This document shows positions 7,549 to 41,881 of a DNA stretch of 64,000 bases, in pieces. Both the position numbers and the translations under genes were made by a program. Under the pieces are notes generated by a model, which saw only the letters and a program-made list of their open reading frames with translations, made no database searches and was not told the DNA's origin. Origin of the DNA: a virus; IMG/VR virus record IMGVR_UViG_3300007513_000005; one strand, 5' to 3'. Numbering within the stretch: position 1 is the first letter of the stretch; every line of letters begins with the position of its first letter.

Positions 7549-7893
7549 TCACAACTCCGTTCCGCCCTTAGCACCAGGTAAAACCTTTTCTATCCGAAGA
7601 CTATACAATGCCGTATTCGGCACAATTAGTTTACGATCGGTCTCTATAAGGTGAAACACTGTTTTAGTCGGGGTTTGTCGGACAATCCTCGCCTTTTTAT
7701 CGCCGTTAATATATACTATATCATCTACGTCGAAATCATTTCCAAACATAAACAATAAACCGTCTAATACATTAGAAACGACGTTCTTAAATAGTAGTAT
7801 AGCGAATGCTGCGAGAAACATCCAGCCATAATGTCCTAGTATATCAGTAATGATTGTTTCGGTAGTTTCGATTATTTGTTGTGGATTATCCAT
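7549..7893 (-). CDS. Mini MscS-like membrane protein (TM plus beta domain)
   Basis: TM helix followed by VSNVLDGLLFMFGNDFDVDDIVYING...ARIVR, resembling MscS TM3/middle-beta region. Confidence 0.6.
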   Translation of the reverse strand: MDNPQQIIETTETIITDILGHYGWMFLAAFAILLFKNVVSNVLDGLLFMFGNDFDVDDIVYINGDKKARIVRQTPTKTVFHLIETDRKLIVPNTALYSLRIEKVLPGAKGGTEL

Positions 7894-7903
7894 GTGCGCG
7901 CCC

Positions 7904-7936
7904 CCTCGTGGCGATTGGTGCCACGAGGTAACTAGT
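7904..7936 (-). promoter_or_regulatory. Candidate late promoter ACTAGTTA plus 9-bp hairpin hiding the SD
   Basis: ACTAGTTA-CCTCGTGGC-ACCAATC-GCCACGAGG; GAGG SD lies in the 3' arm. Confidence 0.65.
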
Positions 7937-7979
7937 GCTTAAGTCTGAGGAATTTTATTTTTGTGGTTTTTTTGTTGAG

Positions 7980-8780
7980 TTACTCTGCGTAGCGACTCTT
8001 TGATGACATCTGTCCACCTGTGAATGACATTTCATCATCTTTGCGATTGGCGTTTCTTGCTTTGCGTCGCCTCTCCCTATCTGCTTTCTCGCCAGCGGCT
8101 TGATCTGCTGCAAAAGCAATGTTTGCTGCTCTTTCTCTTGCGACCTCTGCCGCTCGTAACTCTTTTGCCAATGCTTCAGCGCCTGCGGTCTCTCCTGTTT
8201 TCTCTGCTTTAATCGCTTCTTTTCTAAACGTGCGGAGAACGCTCAACATTACGTCTAGTTCGTTGTTCAACGCGTTGGCAAATTTTAACATTTTTTTTGA
8301 TGTTTTGTCCTTCATATCGTAACCCTTCGTCGCGGCGTTTATGAACTTTTTCATCTCCCCAATTCTTTTAACTACAGTTTTATCTGTGCCCATGAGGGTC
8401 CCTCTCTTTTTTTTCGGGAAACTTTTAAAAGTTTCGTGCTCGTATCCGAACCCCCTTGTACGGGATCTGCCCTGGTCTGCCATTCTATCGATTGCCATAC
8501 TCAACTCCCTGGCGGTTGGCATTTCCTCATTCATATACTCCATGAACACTGAGTATTTGGATCTAACCTTCTCTTTGATTTCCCTATTCTGCATTGACAT
8601 CCCTAATCCCGTCTTCTTTTTTACGGTGTCAATGCCTTTGCGGATAAAATTTCCAAATCCTTCTTCGATTAGTTTTGCTTCAATCTGGTCTTTGTTTAAA
8701 CCTTCTTTAAGGTACTTCTGGACTCTTCTCTCTGCTAGTACTCTTTTTGTTGAGTTTAGCGTACTTTCTGATAACTTCAT
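7980..8780 (-). CDS. Basic helical hypothetical protein
   Basis: 266 aa, TAGGAG SD; repeated LxE motifs near the N-terminus. Confidence 0.7.
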   Translation of the reverse strand: MKLSESTLNSTKRVLAERRVQKYLKEGLNKDQIEAKLIEEGFGNFIRKGIDTVKKKTGLGMSMQNREIKEKVRSKYSVFMEYMNEEMPTARELSMAIDRMADQGRSRTRGFGYEHETFKSFPKKKRGTLMGTDKTVVKRIGEMKKFINAATKGYDMKDKTSKKMLKFANALNNELDVMLSVLRTFRKEAIKAEKTGETAGAEALAKELRAAEVARERAANIAFAADQAAGEKADRERRRKARNANRKDDEMSFTGGQMSSKSRYAE

Positions 8781-8880
8781 TATAAACTCTCCTATAGGTG
8801 TGTGATATATCGTAAGTAATTATACCATAGGTTGCTTAAAAACCTCAGAAAATTTCTTGGCCATAGTGAGCGCGTATTAA

Positions 8881-8946
8881 GGCGGCGGGTGGGGTCTAGT
8901 GACCCCATGCACCTAGTATGCCGGCCCCAGGGGGGAGGGGGGGTAC
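8881..8946. other. GC-rich non-coding element with hairpin and G-runs
   Basis: GGGGTC-TAGT-GACCCC hairpin and G6-A-G7 run in an AT-rich genome at a module boundary. Confidence 0.6.
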
Positions 8947-8955
8947 GTTAACAAA

Positions 8956-9195
8956 CTAACACCCTATTCGTATTGCCCACATGCGCATGCGGACGTCCGC
9001 TTCATAGGGGTCGACACCATTCTGCAGGGCGTTGTCGATGCGCTGGCACTCGGCCACACGCTCAAGACGGTTGAACCGTTGACGTTGCGCTGCCTTGTTG
9101 GAGCTATAGTTGGTACGCCATTCGTTGAACAGATCATCACAATAGGTTATGATAGCATCGTTCTCGCGGTCTAACATCTTATCCATGGTTAACAT
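8956..9195 (-). CDS. Early hypothetical protein
   Basis: Start revised to 9195 (AGAAAGG SD), downstream of the promoter at 9244-9272. Confidence 0.6.
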   Translation of the reverse strand: MLTMDKMLDRENDAIITYCDDLFNEWRTNYSSNKAAQRQRFNRLERVAECQRIDNALQNGVDPYEADVRMRMWAIRIGC

Positions 9196-9243
9196 ATGGA
9201 ACCTTTCTGTTTGTACCAGGGTTAATTCCCTGACTACTCTTAT

Positions 9244-9276
9244 ACTATACTGGCCCCCTTGCTGGATTGCAAGGGG
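9244..9276 (-). promoter_or_regulatory. sigma70 promoter overlapping a stem-loop
   Basis: TTGCAA-17-TATAGT; -35 lies within the CCCCTTGC/GCAAGGGG 8-bp inverted repeat. Confidence 0.65.
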
Positions 9277-9296
9277 TTTTTGCAATTTAATTGTTT

Positions 9297-9734
9297 TTAA
9301 TCGTCGCCAAATAGATCACTTGCGGGGATACGGTCAGCGCGCGCTGAGATTGCTTCGATTGCTGCTAGGTCTGCAGCCGTTGGACCTTCTGATGTTTTAA
9401 CTTTCTTTGCCTTGGCAACCTTCTTAGACTTGGCAACAATTGGCGCAGCCTCTTGCTTTGGTTCCTTACGGGTTAAGATTGCTTCATTGTCACTGATGAA
9501 CGCGCCAAGGTCACCAGACTTGCACATATCAATGATACGCTCCCATTGGCCAGCATACAGGGTAACTGGCATACGCTGCAAACCATAGATACTGATACCG
9601 CCTTTAGTGCTAACCTTCATACGTACTTGGTTCTTGACAGTTTGCTTAAGTGCTTTCAATTCAGCTTGCATTGCTTCAAGCTCTGCGATGCGTGCCATTG
9701 TTGCGTTGTTTGCTACGTTTGCTGAGTTACTCAT
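9297..9734 (-). CDS. Early hypothetical protein (coiled-coil, conserved core, Lys/Ala-rich tail)
   Basis: Start revised to MSNSAN at 9734 (GAAAGGG SD); core KVSTKGGISIYGLQRMPVTLYAGQWERI. Confidence 0.7.
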   Translation of the reverse strand: MSNSANVANNATMARIAELEAMQAELKALKQTVKNQVRMKVSTKGGISIYGLQRMPVTLYAGQWERIIDMCKSGDLGAFISDNEAILTRKEPKQEAAPIVAKSKKVAKAKKVKTSEGPTAADLAAIEAISARADRIPASDLFGDD

Positions 9735-9788
9735 GATCTTTACCCTTTCGAGGTAGTTATTGGTTGCGGTCCCCTTGACCACTTCTAA

Positions 9789-9817
9789 ACTATAGGACAA
9801 TTGAGATTGATTGTCAA
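9789..9817 (-). promoter_or_regulatory. Strong sigma70 promoter with A-tract UP element
   Basis: TTGACA-17-TATAGT preceded by an A8 tract. Confidence 0.75.
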
Positions 9818-9852
9818 AACTTTTTTTAATAAATCGTATAACCTTAATGATC

Positions 9853-10062
9853 TCAGTCAGTTACGACTGGATATTCTTTTGCATCGCGGTGATTCAGGGT
9901 TTCAATCTGAGCCGCTATCAATTCTTGGCACATGTTGATAGTACCAAAGTATATTTGATAGGCGGTGCTGCGATAGTGCTCAGGTAAACCAGCAATGATG
10001 CCAGCAACCTGGTTAGCGTTAAGAGTAGTGAATAGACCGTTCTTTGGGATAGGGTTAATCAT
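9853..10062 (-). CDS. Early hypothetical protein
   Basis: Start revised to MINPIP at 10062; promoter TTGTAT-17-TTTAAT upstream. Confidence 0.6.
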   Translation of the reverse strand: MINPIPKNGLFTTLNANQVAGIIAGLPEHYRSTAYQIYFGTINMCQELIAAQIETLNHRDAKEYPVVTD

Positions 10063-10169
10063 GGCGTTGCCTTTCGTTTTTGTTTTCGCCTCAACTTCTG
10101 AAACCATTAAACCATAACGTGGCAAACAATACAAATCTTTTTTTAATTAATCGTATTTCTTCAATTAAT

Positions 10170-10295
10170 TCACATACTTGCAAGAGCGCCAAAGACTGCA
10201 AACATATATAGAGCAGTGCCTACGGTAGCCATAAGTAGATCCCGTAGGGTATAGCGATAATTGACCAGGGCCTGATGCCCTTCTAAATCTTCCAC
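10170..10295 (-). CDS. Small membrane peptide (41 aa)
   Basis: GTG start with GGAG SD; C-terminal TM LLMATVGTALYMFAVFGALASM; not in track. Confidence 0.55.
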   Translation of the reverse strand: MEDLEGHQALVNYRYTLRDLLMATVGTALYMFAVFGALASM

Positions 10296-10522
10296 TTTAA
10301 TTTCTCCGTATCTGTATTGTTCAACAGTAACATCATATAGCGTATGGCCTTCGCCTTAGCGCACGATAGGGTGCGTGCCTTGCTTATGTACTCTGCATCC
10401 TTTACGGTACCCACGATTAGGGTATATTCATCGGGCTTCGTTTCTCTTATAAGCGCGAGGCGGTCGATATCGTGCCATTCGATACCCCATGTGCTTTCGT
10501 CGTACCGTTCCCATTCTAACAT
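10283..10522 (-). CDS. Hypothetical protein
   Basis: 79-aa minus-strand ORF. Confidence 0.5.
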   Translation of the reverse strand: MLEWERYDESTWGIEWHDIDRLALIRETKPDEYTLIVGTVKDAEYISKARTLSCAKAKAIRYMMLLLNNTDTEKLKWKI

Positions 10523-10888
10523 AACGTCGTTTTTGCGTGCATTTTCTAACGGTATCGGGTAGTTAGAGTGTTAACGCCAACGCGCTTAATACACCCTATA
10601 CCACCACGTACCACTGATTTACACTATATAACCTTTCACCATATAACATCATTATAACATATTGTAATCACTGCGTTTTTTCTATTTGCGCTTCTTACGT
10701 GTATGTGACCATGCACTACTAACCGTTGTGCGCTTTGTCTTTTTTCTACTCAATGTGTATGCTCCTATGTGTGTGTTTTTTATATATCAGCGGGGGACCG
10801 ATTCCCGATACGGTCTACAGTAAGGTCGTTTCATTCCCTATCCTCCGAGCGTTATGTGTAACGCATGCGGTGTGCTTGGTTGTGTTTT

Positions 10889-11176
10889 TTATACAATCAA
10901 TGCTCTGTTCTTTTTTAACTCTACCTCGTTAACCTGAATCCAGTCTGCGTATTGCCTAGACTTGCCAACGTGACAGGATGTAGTCTGCGAGTAATACCTG
11001 ATACCACCTGATGTATAATCAAATAATACTTTCTCACCTTGGGCATTAGTCGTACCGATCTTTAACTGATATGAGTAAAGGTCTTTACCATCTGTACTAT
11101 AAGCGCCAGTGCCATTACTTGCCGCACTGTTCTTTCTCCAATAGTAAGCGATGTTCTCATTAGTAGTCTTAATCAT
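10889..11176 (-). CDS. Early hypothetical protein
   Basis: GAGGGAG SD; LYSYQLKIG...YSQTTSCHV; own promoter at 11209-11237. Confidence 0.7.
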   Translation of the reverse strand: MIKTTNENIAYYWRKNSAASNGTGAYSTDGKDLYSYQLKIGTTNAQGEKVLFDYTSGGIRYYSQTTSCHVGKSRQYADWIQVNEVELKKNRALIV

Positions 11177-11208
11177 TTTATTTCTTTCTCCCTCGACGTT
11201 CTTTTAGT

Positions 11209-11237
11209 ATTATCGCAAATCATTCAAACAAAGTCAA
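11209..11237 (-). promoter_or_regulatory. sigma70 promoter module
   Basis: TTGACT-17-GATAAT; downstream AACGTCGAG shared with the module at 11556. Confidence 0.7.
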
Positions 11238-11255
11238 ATACTTTTTAATCTTTCT

Positions 11256-11510
11256 TTATTCTGTAGTGATCTCCATATCTTGCGGGCCTGACACTGTGCC
11301 TACCACTGTATTATAATTGAAGATGCGGAAGTCTTTACTCACAATATCCCATACCAGTTCAACACCTTCGGCAAGCTTGCGGGGTTTCGCATTGCTGCTA
11401 ACCTTACCGTTTAAGAAGTCAGCAGGTAAGTCTCCAATGCGAACAAACGACATTGTTCTATCTTCCCCTGATGCTTTAGTGAATGTTCCACTATAGATAT
11501 TTACTTTCAT
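11256..11510 (-). CDS. SH3/WYL_2-like beta-barrel protein
   Basis: GTFTKASGEDRTM...VWDIVSKDFRIFNY pattern. Confidence 0.55.
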   Translation of the reverse strand: MKVNIYSGTFTKASGEDRTMSFVRIGDLPADFLNGKVSSNAKPRKLAEGVELVWDIVSKDFRIFNYNTVVGTVSGPQDMEITTE

Positions 11511-11555
11511 TCATTTACCCTTTCTAGGTAGTTTGTCTCTCGACGTTGTTTTAAC

Positions 11556-11584
11556 ATTATTGCAAACCATTTTGCAATTGTCAA
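11556..11584 (-). promoter_or_regulatory. sigma70 promoter module
   Basis: TTGACA-17-AATAAT; near-copy of 12034-12062. Confidence 0.75.
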
Positions 11585-11601
11585 ATCTTTATTAAACTTT
11601 C

Positions 11602-12006
11602 TTATTTCTTCAATGATTCCAACACTTTACGTGGATCGAGGTCTTCGTAAACACCACTAGAGGAGATACGGTCACCGTTCGGACCCTGCGACCAATAAGT
11701 AATACCCGAGGCCTCACAAAAGTATTTATCGTAACCTAGCGAGCGGAGCTTATGCTTCGCCTGGTCCCAGTCGATCTTTGCTCGCGCTTCGGCCTCATAA
11801 TCTCGGGTTGCACCCTCCGAGACGACAAGTGCCATACTAACTTTCGTATCTGTGATGCTCGGGTTCTCATAAGCATGAAACCTCATCTGAGCCGCAATGT
11901 TATCACTAGCAGCACACATTACTTCGCACCACAGTTCCTTTACCGTTCCAAAGTCTTTATTGACATATGCTGTTAACAGTGCATCGCCACGTTCTTTAAT
12001 ATTCAT
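11602..12006 (-). CDS. Early hypothetical protein, paralog of 12090..12323
   Basis: Start revised to MNIKER at 12006; C-terminal GY..Y.C..GI.YWSQ..NGDRI...DPRKVLESL shared. Confidence 0.7.
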   Translation of the reverse strand: MNIKERGDALLTAYVNKDFGTVKELWCEVMCAASDNIAAQMRFHAYENPSITDTKVSMALVVSEGATRDYEAEARAKIDWDQAKHKLRSLGYDKYFCEASGITYWSQGPNGDRISSSGVYEDLDPRKVLESLKK

Positions 12007-12033
12007 GCTGTAACCTTTCTTCATTGTGTAAAC

Positions 12034-12062
12034 ATTATTGCATATCATTTTGTAATTGTCAA
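12034..12062 (-). promoter_or_regulatory. sigma70 promoter module
   Basis: TTGACA-17-AATAAT followed by GTTTACACAATGAAG, which is also at 12563-12580. Confidence 0.75.
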
Positions 12063-12089
12063 ATCTTTATTGAACTTTCTAGTTAAAAC

Positions 12090-12323: not shown

Positions 12324-12336
12324 ACTATAACCTTTC

Positions 12337-12546: not shown

Positions 12547-12576
12547 TACTTTTTTCCTTCGCTTCATTGTGTAAAC

Positions 12577-21464: not shown

Positions 21465-21540
21465 TGGTGGACCCGCTCGGATTTGAACCGAGGACCGATC
21501 GGTTATGAGCCGATTGCTCTAACCACTGAGCTACAGGTCC
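21465..21540 (-). tRNA. tRNA-Ile2 (CAT, lysidine type), CCA encoded
   Basis: GGACCTGTAGCTCAGTGGTTAGAGCAATCGGCTCATAACCGATCGGTCCTCGGTTCAAATCCGAGCGGGTCCACCA; cloverleaf, A73, C4-G69/C5-G68 TilS determinants favour Ile2 over Met. Confidence 0.9.
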
Positions 21541-28557: not shown

Positions 28558-28589
28558 AGTTTCTCCTTTTTTTGTTGATTAAATAAAAG

Positions 28590-28663
28590 CGCCCTGGGTA
28601 GGATTCGAACCTACGACCTGCGGATTAGAAGTCCGATGCTCTATCCAGCTGAGCTACCAGGGC
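28590..28663 (-). tRNA. tRNA-Arg (TCT), CCA not encoded
   Basis: GCCCTGGTAGCTCAGCTGGATAGAGCATCGGACTTCTAATCCGCAGGTCGTAGGTTCGAATCCTACCCAGGGCG; cloverleaf with T27-C43 mismatch. Confidence 0.9.
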
Positions 28664-30506: not shown

Positions 30507-30751
30507 TTTTTATTTTGTGATATGTATCGACTGATGTGATGACAGATGTCAAGACTGTCACCTTCGAATCCTCGATCAAGTTCTTTATAAGACTCTAGTG
30601 CCTCTCTGGTTAATATAAACAATCTCGCAAATAAATCTGCTCTTGGCCCAAGATCTGATAATTGTTTCGTGTCCAAGTCATCCACTGAATACCCACTGTC
30701 TTCGTCAGACTTCCAATGGTAACCACTCCCCACTCTCCATTCTTTTGACAT
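30491..30751 (-). CDS. Hypothetical protein
   Basis: 86-aa ORF; start uncertain. Confidence 0.6.
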   Translation of the reverse strand: MSKEWRVGSGYHWKSDEDSGYSVDDLDTKQLSDLGPRADLFARLFILTREALESYKELDRGFEGDSLDICHHISRYISQNKKCLRD

Positions 30752-30938
30752 CTTTCTTTCTAATTAAACTCCACGACTTAAATTTGGTAATCCTACCCTC
30801 GTTTAACCCGTTTAACAATAAAACATTGTAATAATCATTGGGAAGAAACCCAACTACTTTTCCAAAAACATTAATTGGTTTACCTAGAGGAAAGTCCCTT
30901 AAGTAAACCTCATCGCCTCTGTTAAACTCCCTGTCCAT
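30705..30938 (-). CDS. KOW/SH3-like small protein
   Basis: FNRGDEVYL...GKVVG...YNVLL. Confidence 0.68.
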   Translation of the reverse strand: MDREFNRGDEVYLRDFPLGKPINVFGKVVGFLPNDYYNVLLLNGLNEGRITKFKSWSLIRKKDVKRMESGEWLPLEV

Positions 30939-30962
30939 ACTAAGTAATTAGTACAGACAGGG
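30929..30962 (-). promoter_or_regulatory. 15-bp RNA hairpin containing ACTAATTA and sequestering the AUG of 30705..30938
   Basis: CCCUGUCUGUACUAA-UUAC-UUAGUAUGGACAGGG; fully paired on the minus strand with two G-U pairs. Confidence 0.7.
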
Positions 30963-30976
30963 GTTCAAAAGGTGAT

Positions 30977-31414
30977 CTAATTTACCTCTACTAATTCGAT
31001 ATCAAAGTTGAGATTCTTGCCTGCCATAGGATGATTAAAATCAATCACAACAAACTCCTCCTCAACCTGATTAATCACTCCACGAACTGGCTGATTCTGT
31101 ACGTTTCCTTCAATAACCACTCCCGCTTCAAACTCAAAGTTCTCTGGAAATGATTGTTTTGGCACAGATTGGATGCCTTCAGGATTATGTTCACCATAAG
31201 CCTGTTCAGGTTCAAGTGTAACAGTCTTCGTTTCGCCAACCTTCATCCCATTAACAGCTGCGTCAAATCCAGGGATCATCTGCCCTGCACCCACAGTAAA
31301 CTCAATGGCCTCGCCACGGTCATACGAACTATCAAAAACAGTTCCGTCCTCGAAGGTTCCCTTGTAGTGAACATGCACTGCACGACCTTCCTTTGCTATT
31401 GTCTTCTTACCCAT
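30977..31414 (-). CDS. FKBP-type peptidyl-prolyl isomerase (SlyD/FkpB-like)
   Basis: VHYKGTFEDGTVFDSS, G..QMIPGFD, PEQAYG, DFNHPMAGKNLNF. Confidence 0.93.
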   Translation of the reverse strand: MGKKTIAKEGRAVHVHYKGTFEDGTVFDSSYDRGEAIEFTVGAGQMIPGFDAAVNGMKVGETKTVTLEPEQAYGEHNPEGIQSVPKQSFPENFEFEAGVVIEGNVQNQPVRGVINQVEEEFVVIDFNHPMAGKNLNFDIELVEVN

Positions 31415-31428
31415 TTTATGTACTCCTT

Positions 31429-31683
31429 TTAATTGTTTTGGTTAAGATCTTTTTTTCTCTTCATTTTTTTCTTGAGGTATTTTCCAACCTCTGATTCTAG
31501 TTCAACCTCCTCCAATCCCTCCTCTTCTGGAGGTTCCCATATGTCCCACTCTACATTATCCATATTATCCTTTCCGTAGATGTAAGTCAAGTGATTTTCG
31601 AAATCTTTTGCCTTACAGTCAAAAGTCGAAGTCCTATCTTCGATATGATTATTCTTGAGAATATATACTGTCGCTTCAATCAT
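31429..31683 (-). CDS. Hypothetical protein
   Basis: 84-aa ORF, ATGA overlap. Confidence 0.6.
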   Translation of the reverse strand: MIEATVYILKNNHIEDRTSTFDCKAKDFENHLTYIYGKDNMDNVEWDIWEPPEEEGLEEVELESEVGKYLKKKMKRKKDLNQNN

Positions 31684-32117
31684 CCAACAATCCTTATAAC
31701 TGGTCTTAATTCGGAAGAGAACCCCTTCTCTTCATAGTATTCTAAATCCATCTCATTCAACTTCTTAAAGACCGCGCTCAACTTATCAGAAGAATTGGGT
31801 CCAAAAACTACACTCGACGGGAATGAAACAAAGTTTAAAAACTCATCCAGTTCCCTCTCAATGTTGGTTGTGGATATACCTCGCATGTCCAGGGTTCTGT
31901 ATCTTTTCTGTGTTCTTCTATATTTCTTGTTCTCAGCATATTTGATTCTCATATTACCACAGTCAATCATTTGCCAAAACTGCGCCTTCTTGATTCTATT
32001 TACTCTGTCCCTAAACAAGTAAAACCAATACGCCCTAGTCTCTTTGATCAACAGCCCTGTACCAATATCTGTCATGATCATGTCGCCTGGTTTTACATTG
32101 TACCTCTCTTCTATCAA
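31680..32117 (-). CDS. KOW plus Smr-like domain protein
   Basis: Start revised to TTG 32117; VKPGDMI...GLLI (KOW) then TLDMRG...ELDEFL...VVFG (Smr-like LDLRG). Confidence 0.55.
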   Translation of the reverse strand: MIEERYNVKPGDMIMTDIGTGLLIKETRAYWFYLFRDRVNRIKKAQFWQMIDCGNMRIKYAENKKYRRTQKRYRTLDMRGISTTNIERELDEFLNFVSFPSSVVFGPNSSDKLSAVFKKLNEMDLEYYEEKGFSSELRPVIRIVG

Positions 32118-32239
32118 TCTCTCGTTCTCCAGAACAGATAAACCTGAAGGACAAACAAGGCCACTATCGCGAGAATATACCATTGCCTGTTCTCCATCGT
32201 TATGACACCATACCAATCGTTTACTTCCATAACATTCAT
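32114..32239 (-). CDS. Small membrane peptide (41 aa)
   Basis: MNVMEVNDWYGVITMENRQWYILAIVALFVLQVYLFWRTRD*; overlaps both neighbours by 4 nt; not in track. Confidence 0.6.
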   Translation of the reverse strand: MNVMEVNDWYGVITMENRQWYILAIVALFVLQVYLFWRTRD

Positions 32240-32412
32240 TCTCTCACCAAACTTAAATCCCCAGACCACACCCAAAGTCTCTGCTCACCGAAGAGCACTA
32301 GAAGTTTGCCCACCTCATTTGGCTCCTTGAGTATTATACCATGCTTCACCTTGGGGGATAACAAGGGATCATGGTGCCAGTGAGTATATTTTACCAAATC
32401 TCCGACTCTCAA
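32236..32412 (-). CDS. KOW/SH3-like miniprotein (58 aa)
   Basis: TTG start; MRVGDLVKYTHWHHDPLLSPRVKHGIILKEPNEVGKLLVLFGEQRLWVWSGDLSLVRE*; not in track. Confidence 0.7.
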   Translation of the reverse strand: MRVGDLVKYTHWHHDPLLSPKVKHGIILKEPNEVGKLLVLFGEQRLWVWSGDLSLVRE

Positions 32413-32616
32413 TTATTTGTCAACACCAAACCTTGTCTTGTACCACAACCTCTCATGAGTATAGTATAGGACCGTCTTGGTCAAAATCTCTATGCCACTA
32501 AACATTGCTGCATAGTCAATGCTACCAGTCATTATCCACGATAATATGAACGTGTCCAGTGTTCCTACAATTCTCCACGTTAGCGCCTTAGCGACGTGTC
32601 TCTTCTTTTGTACCAC
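32413..32616 (-). CDS. DUF2061-type small membrane protein
   Basis: RHVAKALTWRIVGTLDT...KTVLYYTHERLW; promoter TTGACT-17-TATAGT at 32650-32678. Confidence 0.8.
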   Translation of the reverse strand: MVQKKRHVAKALTWRIVGTLDTFILSWIMTGSIDYAAMFSGIEILTKTVLYYTHERLWYKTRFGVDK

Positions 32617-32691
32617 TATTACCTCTCCTTTGTTTGTTATTGTTTATATACTATACCAGATATGTTTTATGAAGTCAATCTTTTTTTTATG

Positions 32692-33063
32692 TTATGGTAG
32701 GGGGCGTCCAATATAATTATTCCAGGCATATCTCTTTCTCTTTTCGAGATAATCTTCCTCGTCTTCGCAGTCATATGATTCTCTTTCGAATGGAATGTCA
32801 TAATACGCCTTCCTGCCGTTGCCGTGTCTCAAGTATCCCTTCATCCAGTACCATCCGTAAAGAATTAGAAATCCGACAAAAAAGCACTCGATTTGCTGCT
32901 GAAAATGGATACACTCGTGGCGCCTGGTTGTTTCGCCTACTTCTCCGCGACACCAGACAAAAATACCAAGATTAATCGCTCCGATCTCAATTGGAGCAAT
33001 CTTGCTCAACCAAACTGGGACTCTACTATTCTCTATGAAAATAGGCGTTAATGATTTCAGCAT
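32692..33063 (-). CDS. HExxH-motif membrane-associated protein
   Basis: RRHECIHFQQ...AYYDIPFERESY. Confidence 0.7.
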   Translation of the reverse strand: MLKSLTPIFIENSRVPVWLSKIAPIEIGAINLGIFVWCRGEVGETTRRHECIHFQQQIECFFVGFLILYGWYWMKGYLRHGNGRKAYYDIPFERESYDCEDEEDYLEKRKRYAWNNYIGRPLP

Positions 33064-33313
33064 CAGTCTTACCTCCGTCGTAAACCCACAACCATTTTTT
33101 GTAGAGCCAACCTTGACCGTTTTCAGACCTCCTTAGATTAGTAAAATATGATTCATACTTAACTCCTGGGACCATCCGTACAAGGGCCTTATCGCTATAA
33201 CCGTCTCCTCTTTGCTCTATCCTAAGAAGTAAACCGATCCACTCGTGTCTTGGAAAAATATAGTGATGAACAAGGTCCCCCACTTTCGGTTCTTTTCTAC
33301 TGGTTCGTACCAC
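33026..33313 (-). CDS. KOW/SH3-like small protein
   Basis: PKVGDLV...IGLLL; ACTAGTTA 5 nt before the GTG. Confidence 0.68.
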   Translation of the reverse strand: MVRTSRKEPKVGDLVHHYIFPRHEWIGLLLRIEQRGDGYSDKALVRMVPGVKYESYFTNLRRSENGQGWLYKKWLWVYDGGKTDAEIINAYFHRE

Positions 33314-33442
33314 ATAAGTAACTAGTATTTACAAGAACATTCTGTCTGCTGATATTCAATTTGCCTATCGTAATCCCTATACCAAAACACTACCGCAGTC
33401 AATATTAGAGACCAAAGTATTAAGGAAGTTTGTTCAAGAACT

Positions 33443-34000
33443 TTAGGCGATAGTTTGATAGTTAGTCACCTCCACGACTTTCGAAAGGTCATACTTATAC
33501 TTAGCAGCAACGTTTGGTCTGCTCCTACTTTCCGCTTCTTGGATTAGGAACTTGAGCCTCTTAAACAACAACTCACAGTTTATATAAAACTGAAAGGCTT
33601 TGACCAACACACTAACACCCGTGAAACTCATGGAGGTAGTATTTTCACTGAAACAAGTTCTGTCCTTCATATCGTTTCTGAACTCAATCTTCATCATTGT
33701 CTTAGACTTTAATGAGAGTTCCCTTCCAGCTGAATGATCTACTTGAAAATATAAATCACTCAACCCTATTGTGTCCAAAGACTTATAAGTTTCACCAAAG
33801 TGATTGACCAATGCATTAAATCCAGCGTCGACGAGACCAACTCCGTTACCAGAAAATTCTCTCTCTTCCGAATTGTACTGCATCTTCAATGTAATGTCTG
33901 TTTGGTTCCTTTCTTCATATAAATTAAGTGATAGTAGTTTTAACTCTACCCTCTCTTTAAGATATTCCACGAAATACTTCAAGATAAGATCTCTGTTCAT
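33443..34000 (-). CDS. Stand-alone LeuA allosteric (dimerisation) domain-like protein
   Basis: FSGNGVGLVDAGFNAL...LSDLYFQV resembles the GNGPVDA..NAL motif. Confidence 0.5.
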   Translation of the reverse strand: MNRDLILKYFVEYLKERVELKLLSLNLYEERNQTDITLKMQYNSEEREFSGNGVGLVDAGFNALVNHFGETYKSLDTIGLSDLYFQVDHSAGRELSLKSKTMMKIEFRNDMKDRTCFSENTTSMSFTGVSVLVKAFQFYINCELLFKRLKFLIQEAESRSRPNVAAKYKYDLSKVVEVTNYQTIA

Positions 34001-34380
34001 ACTGTTGTCTTTTCAAATCCCTGTGAAACTTTAAAAATTTTGCGAACGCCTTTTGTTTGTTTGATCATTCTGAGGATCTTTAATTTTGCATCCTCTGGTG
34101 ATCTGATCATTCCTGGTAGACTAGGTATGAACTTTACCTTCAACCCTGCTATGTAATCTGTTTCTGATATTTTCTGATTCTTTACCATGATGGTTACAAC
34201 GGTGATACTAGGGATTGCTCGAATATCGGCAACGATGTCCTCCAACCCTCTATATCCTCTCTCACCGCCAGATTCGGACTTGTATCCTAACATCATATAG
34301 AACTGGTAAACGCCCGTCTGTCGGGAGCGATCCTGCCTTTCTTGGATGAGCGAGTCAAAATAATCTTGAACTTCTTTCAT
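33997..34380 (-). CDS. Hypothetical protein (putative late)
   Basis: LEDIVADIRAIPSITVV...LKVKF; ACTATTTA 16 nt upstream. Confidence 0.7.
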   Translation of the reverse strand: MKEVQDYFDSLIQERQDRSRQTGVYQFYMMLGYKSESGGERGYRGLEDIVADIRAIPSITVVTIMVKNQKISETDYIAGLKVKFIPSLPGMIRSPEDAKLKILRMIKQTKGVRKIFKVSQGFEKTTV

Positions 34381-34420
34381 AAATAATACCTTACATTAAA
34401 TAGTCAAAGGTGGAAGTAAA

Positions 34421-34440
34421 AGAGGGGCAAAAGCCCCTCT
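34421..34440 (-). terminator. Intrinsic terminator after hsp20
   Basis: AGAGGGGC-TTTT-GCCCCTCT followed by TTTT. Confidence 0.8.
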
Positions 34441-34447
34441 TATGTAT

Positions 34448-34882
34448 TTAGTCAATCTTGATTGACAGTGGTTGTACCTCTGGGCGCTGCGGAACTCTAA
34501 CTGAAAGCAAACCGTTCTCAAACTGCGCTTGTGCTGCAGCAAGATCAAGGTTGTCGTCATAGTTAACGTACGTTTTCGTGAAGTTCCTACGGGCAATGCG
34601 TTGGCGCTTCTCGTTGTTCTCGTCTACCTGACCAGTTATAGTGATTGACCGCTTATCAGTCTGAATGTCAATAGTGAGTTCTTTCTTCTTGAACCCTGCT
34701 AGGGCAAACTCCAGAATTGTAGAACCATCGTCGTCTCGATAAATGTCGGCAACGGGATAGCCCTTTGTTGTGTGCTTAATCGCACCATCCATAAAGTGTT
34801 GATCACTAAACAGATTATCTAAAACTTCACTTAAGTACTTGTGACCCAGAAGTCCTGGTCTATGTATTGCTATGTTGTTCAT
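34448..34882 (-). CDS. hsp20: Small heat shock protein (Hsp20/IbpA family)
   Basis: YPVADIY, FALAGFKK, IARRNF, FENGLLSV. Confidence 0.92.
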   Translation of the reverse strand: MNNIAIHRPGLLGHKYLSEVLDNLFSDQHFMDGAIKHTTKGYPVADIYRDDDGSTILEFALAGFKKKELTIDIQTDKRSITITGQVDENNEKRQRIARRNFTKTYVNYDDNLDLAAAQAQFENGLLSVRVPQRPEVQPLSIKID

Positions 34883-34944
34883 GTTATTTCCTCCTTATTA
34901 AGCAAGTTACATTTTATGATCAAGTCCCGAAGCAACTCAATCAT
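34883..34944 (-). promoter_or_regulatory. ROSE-type RNA thermometer in the hsp20 5' UTR
   Basis: CUUGCUU-AAU-AAGGAG hairpin (UUGCU with bulged G opposite the AGGA SD) preceded by a cUUCGg hairpin. Confidence 0.65.
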
Positions 34945-34950
34945 ACCTAT

Positions 34951-34979
34951 ATTATAAGCACTGCCCAATAGAATGTCAA
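34951..34979 (-). promoter_or_regulatory. Consensus sigma70 promoter of hsp20
   Basis: TTGACA-17-TATAAT. Confidence 0.85.
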
Positions 34980-35314
34980 TAGTAAAGTTGAATAAAAATT
35001 ATTAAAACCGCTAGTCCGAAACAGACCATAGTCTTGGGCGTGAGCATCGACTCTCCCAATAGAAACCAAGTCAGTATAGGAAATATGATCAGTCCTGCCG
35101 AAGACCCTATAAATCTTGCTGTCCATGCTGAACCAGTCTCATCGACAATAAACTTCCAAGAATACCAAAAAGCAAGTGAACACGGCACACCCAACACAAA
35201 TGCTGCAGTGATTGGTTTGTCTTTCCACCAGTCAGAGATATATTGAGAATTTAATTGAAACCACCCTACGATCTGGCCAACGAAAACCAGTACGATACCT
35301 AACGACATCTTCAT
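34976..35314 (-). CDS. 4-TM SMR/DMT-like membrane protein
   Basis: 112 aa, four hydrophobic helices, FLLGE motif. Confidence 0.65.
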   Translation of the reverse strand: MKMSLGIVLVFVGQIVGWFQLNSQYISDWWKDKPITAAFVLGVPCSLAFWYSWKFIVDETGSAWTARFIGSSAGLIIFPILTWFLLGESMLTPKTMVCFGLAVLIIFIQLYY

Positions 35315-35664
35315 CAGTGTACTTCCAGACTCAGCGATGCATCTTTTAAAAGTTTCTTAGACTCAGATAATGCCAACAAACATTTCCAAATGTTTGCTAT
35401 CTCTTCTTCTAGAAGTTCAAGTTCTCCATTTTCGTTCAACTCAACAACCTCTATCAGTTCATCCAGGAAATTTCTAAATATAAAAGCGTTGACGCAGATC
35501 TTGTTTAACTCCTGATAAACAGTCTCTGAGACGTTCATGTCCTCACAATGTGCTGCTCTCAAAAGTTCCTTACTGAAGCTCAAACACTCAACAGTCCATT
35601 TGCGCCATTCTTCCAGAGAATCAGGTTTGAACTTCAGTTTGATATCACTATCTCCCGCTGACAA
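35314..35664 (-). CDS. Hypothetical helical protein
   Basis: 116-aa coupled ORF. Confidence 0.6.
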   Translation of the reverse strand: MSAGDSDIKLKFKPDSLEEWRKWTVECLSFSKELLRAAHCEDMNVSETVYQELNKICVNAFIFRNFLDELIEVVELNENGELELLEEEIANIWKCLLALSESKKLLKDASLSLEVH

Positions 35665-36049
35665 AACCCTTACCCCAAAAATGTTTGCTGTTTCTTTCTT
35701 CTGTTATAAGCAATACACTGATAAACATATCTTCTTGCTTTCTAATCACCTTAGCACTGTGAAGTTCTAGACTTCCATACTTTGGTTTCCTAATTCTTCT
35801 CTGAAACTTTCTTCTTGGGGGAGGGGCATTTAGAAATTCTATACACCCGTCTATTAAATCTTCATCGGTAACCGAAGGCGGGATGGAGTCCTCGACCCTA
35901 ATCCTCGCAGCAATTACCCACTTCTTCGATGCGAACCCTGGTACATTCCAAAACATACTTCCATGGTATCTACCGAATTTAGTCTTGCCTTTTGCAAACT
36001 TCCTAATACCTTCATGTTCATAAATCGGTTCTAAATCACAACTAATCAC
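35648..36049 (-). CDS. Hypothetical protein
   Basis: 133-aa coupled ORF. Confidence 0.65.
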   Translation of the reverse strand: MISCDLEPIYEHEGIRKFAKGKTKFGRYHGSMFWNVPGFASKKWVIAARIRVEDSIPPSVTDEDLIDGCIEFLNAPPPRRKFQRRIRKPKYGSLELHSAKVIRKQEDMFISVLLITEERNSKHFWGKGFVSGR

Positions 36050-36296
36050 TTAATTCGCCTTTCAGGTCATCACAACCACCAACTAATTTAACTATACCAG
36101 TTTCTCCGTCGATGCGCAAGACAATTGGTACCGTGCGGTGGTCATAAAACTTCTTCGCTTCTTCTAGGAACTCTCGATCGTCCTCTAGGTCAAAAAAATC
36201 ATATTCTATACCAGCAAAATCCAGGAGATGCACAGCCTCTATACAGTACGGACAAGAGGATCGCCCATAAACTAAATAACTTGTCCCCCTAGCCAT
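36042..36296 (-). CDS. Glutaredoxin
   Basis: CPYC, TVPIV, VGGCDDL. Confidence 0.92.
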   Translation of the reverse strand: MARGTSYLVYGRSSCPYCIEAVHLLDFAGIEYDFFDLEDDREFLEEAKKFYDHRTVPIVLRIDGETGIVKLVGGCDDLKGELSD

Positions 36297-36573
36297 TGAG
36301 AAGTCTCCTGGTGTCCTTCATAGACTTCAATACCTGTGCGTATTCTCCCAGGACTGTAATTCTTGCTACAGATGATCCCATAGAATATACAACTTCTGTA
36401 AACTTAAGGTCGTCTGCGGTGTTACCATTAACTTCCTGGATGTTCTGATGAGAAGGACTCACCGAGATAATAGAGTTTGTATTAATCGACATTGGTGTTG
36501 TGCTGAACACGTCCCTAACCAATCCATTATTAAATGCAGAATCTCTCGACAGTACATCAAGCGTTATCATCAT
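36289..36573 (-). CDS. Hypothetical protein
   Basis: Start revised to MMITLD at 36573. Confidence 0.6.
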   Translation of the reverse strand: MMITLDVLSRDSAFNNGLVRDVFSTTPMSINTNSIISVSPSHQNIQEVNGNTADDLKFTEVVYSMGSSVARITVLGEYAQVLKSMKDTRRLLNG

Positions 36574-36844
36574 CGCTAGGTGCCTCCCTTTTTGGTTCCA
36601 CAAACATGGCTTTCATGAACCCACTCAAGATAGACTCACAATCAGCGTACGATTCGGAAAGGTCCGCAGATAACTGCCTCATTCTACCCAGGTCGTTCAG
36701 GGACTTAACTCCCAGATCACCTGCGTGGATTTCCTGCGTTATCTCTTTGATTTGTGATATCAAATCTTCGTTCTTTTTCACAATTTCTTTAATCTTATTT
36801 GGTATTTCTTCCAAATCGATCGTATAAGATACTTTTACCTTCAT
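36557..36844 (-). CDS. Hypothetical coiled-coil protein
   Basis: GGAG SD; MKVKVSYTIDLEEIP. Confidence 0.7.
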   Translation of the reverse strand: MKVKVSYTIDLEEIPNKIKEIVKKNEDLISQIKEITQEIHAGDLGVKSLNDLGRMRQLSADLSESYADCESILSGFMKAMFVEPKREAPSDDDNA

Positions 36845-36859
36845 TATTTCTCCGTGTTA

Positions 36860-37129
36860 TTACAAAACTTTAATAAGCAATGCACTTGCAAGACCCACGA
36901 CGGCCGTAAACAAAGTCCAGATAACCTTGGAAGATGTATCTCTCCAGGACTCAAGCGCCCTGATGCGTGCGTAGAGTCCCTCATCTGGGTTGTATACGGC
37001 TTCTTTGATCTTGCCGACATTCTCCATCATCTCATCCTGTCGATCCTTAACTGTCTCAATTGCTAAACATAACTTATCTAGTTTTCTAGTCAACTCTAAC
37101 ACCAAGTTCCTATCAAGATCTTCTGACAT
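36860..37129 (-). CDS. Coiled-coil plus C-terminal TM protein (XhlA/holin-like)
   Basis: RIRALESWR then TM IWTLFTAVVGLASALLIKVL; ACTAGTTA upstream. Confidence 0.55.
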   Translation of the reverse strand: MSEDLDRNLVLELTRKLDKLCLAIETVKDRQDEMMENVGKIKEAVYNPDEGLYARIRALESWRDTSSKVIWTLFTAVVGLASALLIKVL

Positions 37130-37182
37130 TTATTAACCCTCCTGGACTTCATCCACACAATAACTAGTTGCGACAAGGGCAA

Positions 37183-38766
<1,584 letters not shown>

Positions 38767-38783
38767 TCACTTTGTATGGTTAT

Positions 38784-38812
38784 ATTATAATCAAGTATAC
38801 ACTAGATGTCAA
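38784..38812 (-). promoter_or_regulatory. Consensus sigma70 promoter of groEL
   Basis: TTGACA-17-TATAAT. Confidence 0.85.
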
Positions 38813-38820
38813 GTGGTTTG

Positions 38821-39765
38821 TTAGATTTTTTCGGCAGCGGCCTTTGTTTTGACAGTCTTCTTTATTGTCTTGGATTTTTGAGCGGACGTCTCTTTCTTTC
38901 CTTGGATCGATGCGTCAGTCTTAAACCTCTCCGCAGCAGTAACGAGTTCCTGCAGCGTTGAAAAGAGATTCTTAAATTTTGAATCAAGTGCTTGAAAGAG
39001 TTTTTCTGTATAATCAACAGCATTCGATAAGTCCAATGTTCCTATGTCCTTAAATTCATATATTGAATCCTTTAGTTCGTCGGGTTTTAACACAAACGTG
39101 CCGCCCTTGACCAACCGATTCTTCTTGTTTCGGGACAATGAAGATTCCATCTTGTTATATGCATCTATATTTATGACAAATCTATAGAACCTAATCTTCT
39201 GGTCTTCTGGGAACTTTTCGCCAACAATGTAGGTCAAATATCCATCCGACTGGAGATGTGTACGCAAGTTCTTGTAAGATCCTTGTACATTCGATCCTGG
39301 TTTGATAAATTTAAGTGACACGGGCATTCCTGGGAAGTCCACATCGGCCAAGTTAGTCGCAGTGCTCTGGATTACCTTACCACCGAAGATCTCAGCCAGA
39401 AGGTGCTCAAACTGATACCCTTTGGCTGATTGATTTGGTGCGGACAACAGATTGTGCAAAGTGCGTAAGACATCAACCTTAGCGATAGATGCTACATGAT
39501 CGTTGATATCTATCTCTTCAGTTAAGAACTGGTTCATTCGCTGAATAAAACTACTCAACTCTGCAATGCTTCCAGGAACAACGTTTGCGACAGCTGTCTG
39601 AAGTCTTTTTAAACTTTCTGGTTTGGTTGCGTCTGATGCATCATTCATCCAGTTGAAGTCCATAACAATTGGTTGATACTCTATTGTTGCTGGTTCTTCC
39701 TTGTTCTCCGAAATAGGTTTTCCAACTTTGGCGAACAACTCAACTAAAAGATCTAAATCACTCAT
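38821..39765 (-). CDS. Protein with PD-(D/E)xK nuclease-like core
   Basis: GYQFEHLLA...LADV...VSLKF. Confidence 0.5.
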   Translation of the reverse strand: MSDLDLLVELFAKVGKPISENKEEPATIEYQPIVMDFNWMNDASDATKPESLKRLQTAVANVVPGSIAELSSFIQRMNQFLTEEIDINDHVASIAKVDVLRTLHNLLSAPNQSAKGYQFEHLLAEIFGGKVIQSTATNLADVDFPGMPVSLKFIKPGSNVQGSYKNLRTHLQSDGYLTYIVGEKFPEDQKIRFYRFVINIDAYNKMESSLSRNKKNRLVKGGTFVLKPDELKDSIYEFKDIGTLDLSNAVDYTEKLFQALDSKFKNLFSTLQELVTAAERFKTDASIQGKKETSAQKSKTIKKTVKTKAAAEKI

Positions 39766-40568
39766 AGATAATCATCTGCGATCCCGTATTTGATCGCTTC
39801 CTCTGCAGATAAATAGGCATCAACGTTGTTTAAAAGTAACTTTTTAATCTTGTTCCTGGTTAGTTTCGTACATGAACAGAGGTAATCAAAATACATGTTT
39901 TGTAACTCTTTGGTTTCCTTCATCTCATTCTCAATATTGGGAAACGAACCGTGATGTCCACTAATGACACTATGAAGCATCACTCTGCAGTTCTTGCCGA
40001 TCTTTCTTCGCCCCTTTGTACCGCTGGCAAGGATCAATACCCCTGCTGACATTACTTTACCGATACCAATCGTTTCGATGTCACAATCTTGCTTGATTGT
40101 ACTCATAATATCAATGATAGAAAACATATCAGATACAATACCTCCATGAGTGGAGATGTACAACTTGAAAGGCTTCTTCACCTCAACCATACTACCATCT
40201 TCAATCTCCACAACCGATGTCTTGGTGTGATCAAAGTAAAGCATTGCCTGGACAACCTCGGCCGCCATTCGTTCTGAGATGTCCCCATAACAATTGATTG
40301 CTCGTATATCGTCCTTATCGTCCTTACCTGCAATGTTATTGACGATGTATATCGGTTGCTTTCCAGAATCAATGATTTCATCGGCAAAATCATTTGCCAA
40401 TTCTTCAAGGGTCTCTTCTTTCTTCTTTTTCTTCTTTTTGGAAGATTTTCTCGGCACTACGAATTCTCCAAAACTATTGTTTATCAATCCCTCTGGTGCT
40501 TCGACCTTCTTAGATAACTTTCTTGGCATTGTAAACTCTCTCCTTGTTTGTTGGCGTTTTTTCGACAA
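39762..40568 (-). CDS. clpP: ClpP-family protease with basic N-terminal extension
   Basis: YISTHGG, VMSAG (Ser), MLH (His), DAYLSAEEAIKYGIAD (Asp); start may be MPRKL at 40529. Confidence 0.88.
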   Translation of the reverse strand: MSKKRQQTRREFTMPRKLSKKVEAPEGLINNSFGEFVVPRKSSKKKKKKKEETLEELANDFADEIIDSGKQPIYIVNNIAGKDDKDDIRAINCYGDISERMAAEVVQAMLYFDHTKTSVVEIEDGSMVEVKKPFKLYISTHGGIVSDMFSIIDIMSTIKQDCDIETIGIGKVMSAGVLILASGTKGRRKIGKNCRVMLHSVISGHHGSFPNIENEMKETKELQNMYFDYLCSCTKLTRNKIKKLLLNNVDAYLSAEEAIKYGIADDYL

Positions 40569-40809
40569 TTCTGAACGGGAAAGTTCTTAAGAACGACTTC
40601 CACTTATTATCATTCTGAAACTCTCTTTGCAAAATAAGGATCGATTCCTTTCGCTTTGGACTAAATCCCGTAGAACATTCATTCCACTCACCCAACTCCC
40701 TTAACAAAGTCTTGACCTTTCGACCATCCTTATATCTTAATTGTATTCTACATACGACGGTCTTGTCGTCGTTCCTAACTTCTCTCCAAGCAACGATATC
40801 CATGCTCAC
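40510..40809 (-). CDS. Hypothetical protein
   Basis: 99 aa, AGGAG SD. Confidence 0.65.
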   Translation of the reverse strand: MSMDIVAWREVRNDDKTVVCRIQLRYKDGRKVKTLLRELGEWNECSTGFSPKRKESILILQREFQNDNKWKSFLRTFPFRIVEKTPTNKERVYNAKKVI

Positions 40810-40811
40810 TC

Positions 40812-41162
40812 CTACTGTTTAAAATCTTTAAAATCTGTTTCCTGAAAGTACTTTATATAACTCTTTGGTGCACCTCTCAATATAATCGCTGTGCATACAA
40901 GATCCCACTTCCGTACGACCTCTTCTTCATTCGCACAAAGTTTTGAGATCTCTTCTTTTGAAAGTCCCGATTCTTCAAGATGTCCTTTCTTCATCTCGAA
41001 TGCAATCCTAAGTTGTTCTTTGAAATCTTGTGAAATCAACAGGAACTGTGCCATGATCTTCACAATCATGTCTCGCTGTTCCTTTGCGTGCATAAACCTG
41101 GAGAGTGCTCTTGTGAGCACTGCTCCAGTTACGAACCAAAATAATGAATAGGTTATTTCCAT
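40812..41162 (-). CDS. Membrane-anchored hypothetical protein
   Basis: N-terminal TM; promoter TTGACC-17-TACTAT (41169-41197) ends 6 nt before the ATG. Confidence 0.65.
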   Translation of the reverse strand: MEITYSLFWFVTGAVLTRALSRFMHAKEQRDMIVKIMAQFLLISQDFKEQLRIAFEMKKGHLEESGLSKEEISKLCANEEEVVRKWDLVCTAIILRGAPKSYIKYFQETDFKDFKQ

Positions 41163-41210
41163 GGTCTTATAGTACCAAGTCCTTATGGTGGGGTCAAGTC
41201 AAAAATCAGA

Positions 41211-41810
41211 TTACTTGCTTTTTTTAACAAGTGATTCAGAGATTCGCTTTGCAACTCTGCTTGCGATGCGCTCTGCGATCTCTTCGAGTTCTTCCTGATC
41301 TACTTCCTGAAGTGGTGCCTCTTCGTCGTCGAGTGGTTCCTCTTCAGCTGCTGGTTCATCAAGAGCAGGCTCTTCTTCATCGCCCAATCCCTCTTCAGCG
41401 CCACCTACTGCAGACAAAATCTGGTCGAGAATATCGCGAGCAGTCTGTAAAGAAGCAACATCACCTTCTGGGATATCAACCTCAACATCCTGTCCTTCTT
41501 CTGGACCTTCTTCAGCACCTAAATCGTCTTCGAGTCCTGGATCTTCTGGTGCTGGTTCTTCAGCAGCCATATCATCCTCAGCTGCATAGTCTAGTCCACC
41601 CTCTTCAACGGTCTCTTCCTCTAGTTCTTCCGTTGCCTCTTCGATCTCTTCTTCAACGGTCTCTTCCTCTAGTTCTTCCGTTGCCTCTTCGATCTCTTCT
41701 TCCTCACCAAAGACAAATGCCTTTTCGTGAATTGGTTTAAGTCCTGCTAGTTTCCAGAACCTCTTGGTTGTTGCCTCGTTTAAGAGTGCTTTCTTGTTTT
41801 CATTTGACAT
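41211..41810 (-). CDS. Highly acidic protein, putative prohead core/scaffold
   Basis: LLNEATTKRFWKLAG N-terminus, Glu-rich with many (L/I)xE motifs, C-terminal IAERIASRVAKRI helix. Confidence 0.55.
   Translation of the reverse strand: MSNENKKALLNEATTKRFWKLAGLKPIHEKAFVFGEEEEIEEATEELEEETVEEEIEEATEELEEETVEEGGLDYAAEDDMAAEEPAPEDPGLEDDLGAEEGPEEGQDVEVDIPEGDVASLQTARDILDQILSAVGGAEEGLGDEEEPALDEPAAEEEPLDDEEAPLQEVDQEELEEIAERIASRVAKRISESLVKKSK
41602..41697. repeat. Perfect 48-nt in-frame tandem duplication
   Basis: Two copies encoding EIEEATEELEEETVEE. Confidence 0.9.
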
Positions 41811-41881
41811 GTCATTCTCCTTATGAAAATAGTGTTTTTTGTTAACATTAATAAATAGAGTCGAAACTTACAAAAAGGAGA

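Follow-up and report, generated by a model that had tools for sequence, protein, structure and literature searches.

A late-promoter-like box within a start-codon hairpin at one gene of an uncultured marine T4-like phage

We analysed a stretch of 64,000 nucleotides (hereafter the window) from IMG/VR virus record IMGVR_UViG_3300007513_000005, the DNA of an uncultured marine T4-like phage. The window carries a conserved, late-promoter-like box of eight bases, ACTAnTTA, and at a single gene, 30938, this box lies within a predicted RNA hairpin that also holds the start codon. We favour, with moderate confidence, the explanation that 30938 has a gate of the T4 type, the box serving as a late promoter inside an inhibitory hairpin, and that the other genes in question, with one possible exception, are not gated. 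A previous sequence-only reading of the window had gone much further. It proposed that late promoters are systematically embedded in hairpins hiding the Shine-Dalgarno sequence (SD) or the start codon, and cited five genes (7893, 30938, 34380, 37129 and 41810, each named here after the first base of its minus-strand start codon). Nearly all genes of the window, these five included, lie on the minus strand, and the strings quoted for them were all found at the quoted coordinates when read on that strand. The proposal is partly supported: a mechanism already known elsewhere has here one well-supported case and one candidate confined to a single lineage, in a phage group and with a late box that are both new. 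Promoter activity, start site, late timing and effect on translation at box genes are deduced from sequence throughout.

Each leader was folded in two forms, a long one running from 45 nt upstream of the putative transcription start to ATG+30 and a short one beginning at that start, and compared with 200 dinucleotide shuffles. In a second test, the pre-start segment alone was shuffled and its pairing with the SD/AUG region scored. The long leader of 30938 reaches a minimum free energy (MFE) of -34.4 kcal/mol (z -7.39), a value that none of its 200 shuffles attained (nor any in sets of 200-300), while the short transcript, with only -1.1 kcal/mol, is essentially unstructured. The 15-bp core stem (30929-30962), in which two pairs are G-U and the AUG belongs to the 3´ arm, folds with -22.6 kcal/mol alone; the hairpin described by the sequence-only reading, with G-U pairing on the sense strand, is thus confirmed. 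In the second test, too, pairing exceeded the shuffles (p < 0.005). Among the 112 gene starts of the window 30938 is the most extreme, by a margin of 20 kcal/mol, and ranks first in pairing of upstream with coding sequence; the other four reported sites rank 59th to 101st. The region folds better as sense (-36.7 kcal/mol) than as antisense strand (-27.9 kcal/mol), and the sense strand is also the stabler one over 22 orthologous leaders (Wilcoxon p 0.018), which points to an element working at the RNA level. Two other identities of the hairpin were rejected. It is no intrinsic terminator, having no T-run and not being flagged by a terminator scan, and no dispersed repeat, its arm sequence being unique in the window.

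Orthologs of 30938 were gathered via an alignment (A1), as a single-protein search with the 77-aa sequence gave no match. The resulting set comprises 22 non-identical leaders from orthologs that are not mutually independent. In 17 of them, [ACT]CTAnTTA stands 4-7 nt before the ATG and no SD is present. Upstream-to-coding pairing goes beyond the leader's own shuffles in 11/22 (p < 0.05), five of these at p <= 0.003, and the AUG is paired with upstream sequence in 16/22 orthologs versus 27/112 genes of the window. The arms themselves are wholly different between lineages: ATTCTGTG/CACAGAAT in one, a 15-16-bp CAGTCTTCTTTGGTAA arm in another, TCCATACTA/TAGTATGGA in a third. When arms were swapped between family members, cognate pairs averaged -10.3 and non-cognate pairs -6.2 kcal/mol (permutation p ~1e-4). 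Since arm sequences turn over between relatives in this way, the arrangement at 30938 appears to be maintained by selection. Such conservation of structure was found for the 30938 family and for none of the other four reported families.

The genomic setting of 30938 is compatible with transcription from upstream. Sigma70-like promoters are predicted upstream of the gene (e.g. 32650-32678), and the terminator pattern scan flagged nothing at the hairpin or between the preceding FKBP isomerase gene and 30938. Further upstream in the unit, its sole match on the minus strand is weak, with 6 bp, and falls inside coding sequence (31626-31643). On RNA reading through from the FKBP operon, a helix of some -34 kcal/mol would lock up the SD-less AUG of 30938; its 5´ arm comprises part of the box and sequence upstream of it, its 3´ arm the AUG and codons 2-5. 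RNA started at the box would begin at or next to the AUG and, lacking the 5´ arm, would be unstructured.

This scheme needs the box to be a promoter. Of the 13 copies of ACTAnTTA in the window, a number no higher than chance predicts (9.4 +/- 3.2), 12 are on the coding strand and one is on the opposite strand; six of the 12 have a called start at most 60 nt downstream. Strand ratios in three long related contigs are 24:4, 15:1 and 23:4, and the pooled ratio over 791 kb (the window and the loci of its relatives) is 202:30. The box stays at orthologous positions although the flanking sequence diverges. It is this non-random strand, placement and conservation, not the total count, that makes the box real. 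Its positions hold 1.6-2.5 bits of information each, the fifth excepted; positions upstream reach at most 0.7 bits and show no -35-like signal. The box is thus a simple 8-bp A/T-rich element without a -35 element, as a gp55-class late promoter requires. In a 121-kb relative (G001) it is placed upstream of baseplate wedge, tail sheath, head-tail adaptor and other virion genes. Within the replication module of the window (42 to 64 kb) there are no intergenic copies, and leaders there carry sigma70-like promoters. The view of the motif as a late promoter box is in this respect borne out; a literature search for the motif string gave no match.

The distance between box and start codon is bimodal: 44 sites have a spacing of 3-7 nt, six of 8-15 nt and 57 of 16-35 nt. 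Sites of the first class are mostly devoid of an SD, and 50 of the 57 in the last class possess one. This distribution suggests a -10-type element with transcription starting about 5 nt downstream, so that the leader is either absent or long enough for an SD. Start codons 3-7 nt past the box and without SD would imply a class of leaderless late mRNAs. The box might then double as a translational switch. About one third of box-driven genes would be translated only as leaderless mRNA made from the late promoter, SD-less internal AUGs staying silent on early read-through RNA, and the hairpin of the 30938 family would act as a second lock. That late-only translation is achieved mainly by such leaderless design rather than by hairpins is an idea we put forward tentatively, and on balance we doubt it. 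Besides 30938, one leaderless-type site is 33313, where 10/11 leaders of the family have their box 4-5 nt before ATG or GTG and mean z is -0.02.

As to the factor reading the box, the profile of the T4 gp55 family (phrog_234) matches one open reading frame (ORF) of 231-240 aa in each of three near-complete relatives, with E-values of 5e-7, 3e-5 and 1e-3. Searches with Sigma70_r2, with the single T4 gp55 sequence and with phrog_12791 gave no sigma match, and no Pfam sigma domain was found in the candidate. The box is probably read by host RNA polymerase equipped with a divergent gp55-like sigma factor. The candidate ORF, a possible reader of the box, also contains a stretch, YDPNRG-KAFSYF, that resembles sigma region 2.

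Of the remaining reported sites, 7893 comes closest to 30938. The 9-bp stem with GAGG in its 3´ arm is present after the motif as described, with -18.3 kcal/mol for the helix alone. The long leader folds with -23.8 kcal/mol (z -2.89, reached by 2/200 shuffles) and the short one with -9.4 kcal/mol (z +0.2); shuffling of the pre-start segment gave p 0.03-0.10 (energy term). Were transcription to start some 5-6 nt past the box, the CCTC(G) pairing with GAGG would be lost. Three of four relatives (L042-L045) have ACTACTTA at the position of the box, the stem is absent from all four, and in the window it resembles an insertion between box and SD. The 7893 hairpin may be a recent, lineage-specific second case of the gate. 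The 114-aa product has only a marginal match to the MS_channel beta-domain.

At 34380, ACCTT and AAGGT form 5 bp with -2.8 kcal/mol. The long leader has z -1.71, which comes partly from an upstream terminator, and the short one -2.1 kcal/mol (z +0.86). The box is found in 11/13 orthologous leaders, with mean z +0.39 and none significant, and the anti-SD pentamer is not kept in relatives. At 37129, the 5 bp between CCCTT and GAGGG close a 33-nt loop (-4.4 kcal/mol) and do not appear in the MFE structure; z is +0.84 for the long leader and +0.13 for the short one (-8.0 kcal/mol). Here 23 of 25 non-identical leaders retain the box, at protein identities down to ~45% and with unalignable flanks, their mean z is -0.12, and CCCTT is not kept. 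The 89-aa gene itself is conserved after GroEL and could encode a co-chaperonin.

At 41810, the 7 bp between TCTCCTT and AAGGAGA enclose a loop of 52 nt and amount to -6.1 kcal/mol, the long leader being less stable than its shuffles (z +1.06) and the short one folding with -5.5 kcal/mol (z -0.31). The motif copy originally assigned to this gene, ACTATTTT near -24, neither matches the motif nor is conserved. A box variant, [TC]CTATTTA, is instead present in 11/11 orthologous leaders. The anti-SD TCTCCTT (41875-41881) is confined to the window and an identical contig (L001); all other relatives have ATATACT. We also observed a block at 41836-41859 (minus strand), [TC]CTATTTATTAnTGTTAACA, that varies little or not at all among the 11 leaders. 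It consists of the box variant and a palindrome, TGTTAACA, and could be an operator or regulator site.

For 34380, 37129 and 41810, the pre-start segment pairs with the SD/AUG region no better than by chance (p 0.16-0.94), and these pairings are best read as chance complementarities. An AUG or SD held in a helix predicted to be stable enough to block initiation was found at 30938 (AUG) and 7893 (GAGG); at the other three genes helix stability is not beyond that of shuffles. Placement of a promoter in or beside the 5´ arm would fit 30938 and 7893, assuming that the box acts as promoter and that transcription begins some 5 nt past it. The expected difference in folding between long and short leaders appears at these two genes.

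Table 1. Positions of boxes, hairpins and associated genes (window coordinates unless a relative is named)
Feature	Position	Strand	Description
ACTAATTA box	2199..2206	minus	6 nt before ATG of NUDIX gene (box to start 2192-2206); inside upstream coding sequence; no SD
ACTAGTTA box	7929..7936	minus	35 nt upstream of ATG of 114-aa gene (7893)
Hairpin CCTCGTGGC/GCCACGAGG	7904..7928	minus	perfect 9-bp GC-rich stem directly after ACTAGTTA; GAGG in 3´ arm
tRNA-Met (CAT) and tRNA-Arg (TCT)	21465-21540 and 28589-28663	minus	embedded in early/middle region
77-aa orphan gene (30938)	30705..30938	minus	AUG and codons 2-5 form 3´ arm of hairpin
Hairpin around box and start codon	30912..30976	minus	extended helix of ~25 bp; begins directly after FKBP stop codon
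ACTAATTA box	30945..30952	minus	6 nt upstream of ATG of 77-aa gene; no SD; in 5´ arm and loop of hairpin
FKBP-type peptidyl-prolyl isomerase gene	30977..31414	minus	upstream of 30938; Pfam FKBP_C E 8.5e-28; read-through would carry 5´ arm
ACTAGTTA box	33319..33326	minus	5 nt before GTG (33313) of 95-aa gene; no SD; no hairpin; second leaderless-type site
ACTATTTA box	34397..34404	minus	16 nt upstream of ATG at 34380
Intrinsic terminator	34420..34441	minus	just upstream of box at 34397-34404; kept in relatives, stem sequences differ
ACTAGTTA box	37161..37168	minus	31 nt upstream of 89-aa gene following GroEL
TCTATTTA	41852..41859	minus	conserved box variant ~40 nt upstream of ATG at 41810; followed by conserved TTAnTGTTAACA
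Candidate gp55-family ORF	L072:1252-1947, L073:1300-2004, L074:1186-1908	minus	weak phrog_234 match; conserved

That late promoters are broadly and systematically placed in hairpins hiding SD or start, marking late or toxic orphan genes, is very improbable in the light of these data. The hairpins of 30938 and 7893 are real, stable and of the right geometry, and TCTCCTT and AAGGAGA are indeed paired in the MFE structure of the long 41810 leader. At 34380, 37129 and 41810 the helices are nevertheless weak (z -1.7 to +1.1), the 41810 anti-SD and the 7893 stem are not shared by relatives, and no general effect is visible: z averages -0.14 over 29 motif-bearing leaders from the window and the 121-kb relative (+0.21 when the 30938 pair is excluded), and 58 orthologous leaders from five families other than 30938 show no excess pairing. 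For 55 of the orthologous leaders (the 34380, 37129, 41810 and 33313 families) mean z ranges from -0.1 to +0.4, with as many nominal hits as expected by chance. With three of the five pairings weak and no effect across leaders, the architecture is unusable for predicting which orphans are late or toxic, as had been suggested. Leader/SD complementarities of 5-7 nt are to be expected by chance and do not suit the purpose of calling genes late or toxic. The opposite extreme, that every hairpin including that of 30938 is a product of chance, has in its favour the total motif count and the number of perfect stems of at least 9 bp (two in the window versus 2.35 +/- 1.7 in shuffled sequence), neither of which exceeds random. 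It is scarcely credible all the same, given that 30938 beats all its shuffles, tops the 112 gene starts and has pairing that recurs in orthologs.

Several observations weigh against a T4-type gate at 30938. RNAalifold, run on a MAFFT alignment of 17 leaders, yielded no consensus structure, because the stems sit in different registers. The evidence is that AUG-occluding pairing recurs and turns over, not that alignment columns covary, and about half of the orthologs lack significant pairing. An internal AUG without SD should be translated poorly already, which makes the need for a hairpin questionable. Assignment of the putative sigma factor is weak, as hhalign of the candidate ORF against gp55 gave E 0.065. 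Finally, in two orthologs (L055 and L056) a sigma70-like promoter occurs together with an SD, yet there is also a stem containing the AUG; its 5´ arm lies inside the sigma70 transcript, which a simple gate leaves unexplained. These last two orthologs, together with the low read-through translation to be expected without an SD, also speak for the main rival, namely that the helix has a different, promoter-independent job at the RNA level, as a processing site (e.g. for RNase III), a protector of the FKBP 3´ end or a damper, constitutive or regulated, of translation of the 77-aa protein. The helix begins right after the FKBP stop codon and its ~25 bp are a length typical of RNase III substrates. 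Among relatives, however, stem length varies from 6 to 25 bp, many stems being too short for RNase III; common to them is inclusion of the AUG or first codons rather than a constant spacing from the upstream stop, and stems are also found in orthologs with a different upstream gene (L061, L065, L066, L069). We therefore regard this alternative as rather unlikely. The inverted repeat might also act as DNA, forming a cruciform or single-strand promoter hairpin or binding a dimeric regulator. The box does sit in the arm and loop of the repeat, and N4-type hairpin promoters are a known precedent for a DNA hairpin. Complete divergence of the arms between relatives argues against a site for a sequence-specific protein, G-U pairs are used and the sense strand is the stabler one, and no other copy of the box has a repeat of this kind, so that a role as DNA is improbable. 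The late-promoter gate at 30938 remains the reading we prefer.

The 77-aa product of 30938 is predicted to be a small beta-barrel of SH3/KOW/PWWP-like type: its AlphaFold2 model has pLDDT 78, and Foldseek with this model returned only generic small-barrel matches (E >= 3e-3). Neither this protein nor the 127-aa, 89-aa and 199-aa proteins have a Pfam or PHROG match. The gene belongs to a chaperone cluster (30705-38812) that comprises GroEL, its 89-aa partner gene, Hsp20, the FKBP isomerase and the hairpin-locked 77-aa gene. Sigma70-like promoters of the form TTGACA-17-TATAAT occur in many leaders of the window, and those of GroEL (38784-38812) and Hsp20 (34951-34979) are perfect 12/12 matches. 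Between 9800 and 14500 (minus strand), a run of short genes was observed, each following a near-repeated intergenic module with a TTGAC(A/T) -35 and a TAATG/TAAT -10 promoter; it resembles an early-gene array with duplicated promoter cassettes.

The window encodes replication and nucleotide proteins (DnaE-type polymerase, DnaB, UvsX, SSB, RNR, thymidylate synthase) as well as GroEL, Hsp20, the FKBP isomerase, an RNA ligase and two tRNAs. With 8-12 kb as query, neither Megablast nor blastn against a phage collection revealed DNA-level relatives among deposited phage records, and an exact 40-mer of the window had no match in IMG/VR. Marine IMG/VR contigs contain many relatives, with GroEL identities of 50-100%, among them near-complete genomes of 175-193 kb. 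In the 121-kb relative (L037-L041), giant ORFs of 4491 and 2431 aa stand amid virion genes, and several late boxes are directly preceded by terminator-like hairpins. Two further box copies of the window deserve mention. ACTAGTTA stands 3 nt before the ATG of a 97-aa out-of-frame ORF (46801-47094; box and start at 47094-47105, minus strand) within the DnaE polymerase gene, an ORF that could be due to chance or be an overprinted gene. At 5142-5256 (minus strand), a ACTATTTA box lies upstream of a cysteine-rich mini-ORF of 24 codons with a GGAGG SD, downstream of a cysK-like gene.

If the gate at 30938 is real, the T4 trick of setting a late promoter in an inhibitory hairpin is shared by an uncultured lineage of marine phages far removed from T4, which combines it with a different late box and an apparently leaderless start. 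The box and its two spacing classes offer a usable rule for recognizing late genes and true start codons in marine phage genomes of ~190 kb that consist mostly of orphans.

The precedent in T4 had been given correctly: on early or middle read-through transcripts, hairpins lock the translation initiation regions of e, soc, 49 and I-TevI, which become accessible when transcription starts from a late promoter lying within the hairpin (PMC3014915, section 29). As in T4, an 8-bp late-type box lies in the DNA encoding the 5´ strand of the helix (at 30938 and, formally, at 7893), 30938 is downstream of an earlier transcription unit with no terminator flagged at or just upstream of the hairpin, and the short transcript is predicted to be unstructured. 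Unlike the T4 genes, 30938 is SD-less and apparently leaderless, its predicted helix is much longer (~25 bp) and would hide only the AUG and first codons, and its product is a putative small beta-barrel orphan instead of a lysis enzyme, capsid protein or nuclease.

T4 late promoters consist of a bare 8-bp TATA box at -10, recognized by gp55 in conjunction with gp33 and the sliding clamp (PMC2988020). The box described here is likewise a simple A/T-rich octamer without -35, found upstream of virion genes, and complete relatives possess a candidate gp55-family ORF. Its consensus differs, being ACTAnTTA with a free fifth position as opposed to TATAAATA in T4; about one third of its copies stand 3-7 nt from an SD-less start codon; and the sigma assignment is weak, dependence on gp33 and clamp being known for T4. 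Leaderless mRNAs, finally, are known from lambda cI transcribed from PRM and from many actinobacterial genes (PMC4633059). With these, the SD-less box genes share a start codon at or a few nucleotides from the putative 5´ end of the transcript. In contrast to them, the arrangement here is inferred from spacing alone, and it would be tied to one class of phage promoter, so that translation would depend on the promoter used.

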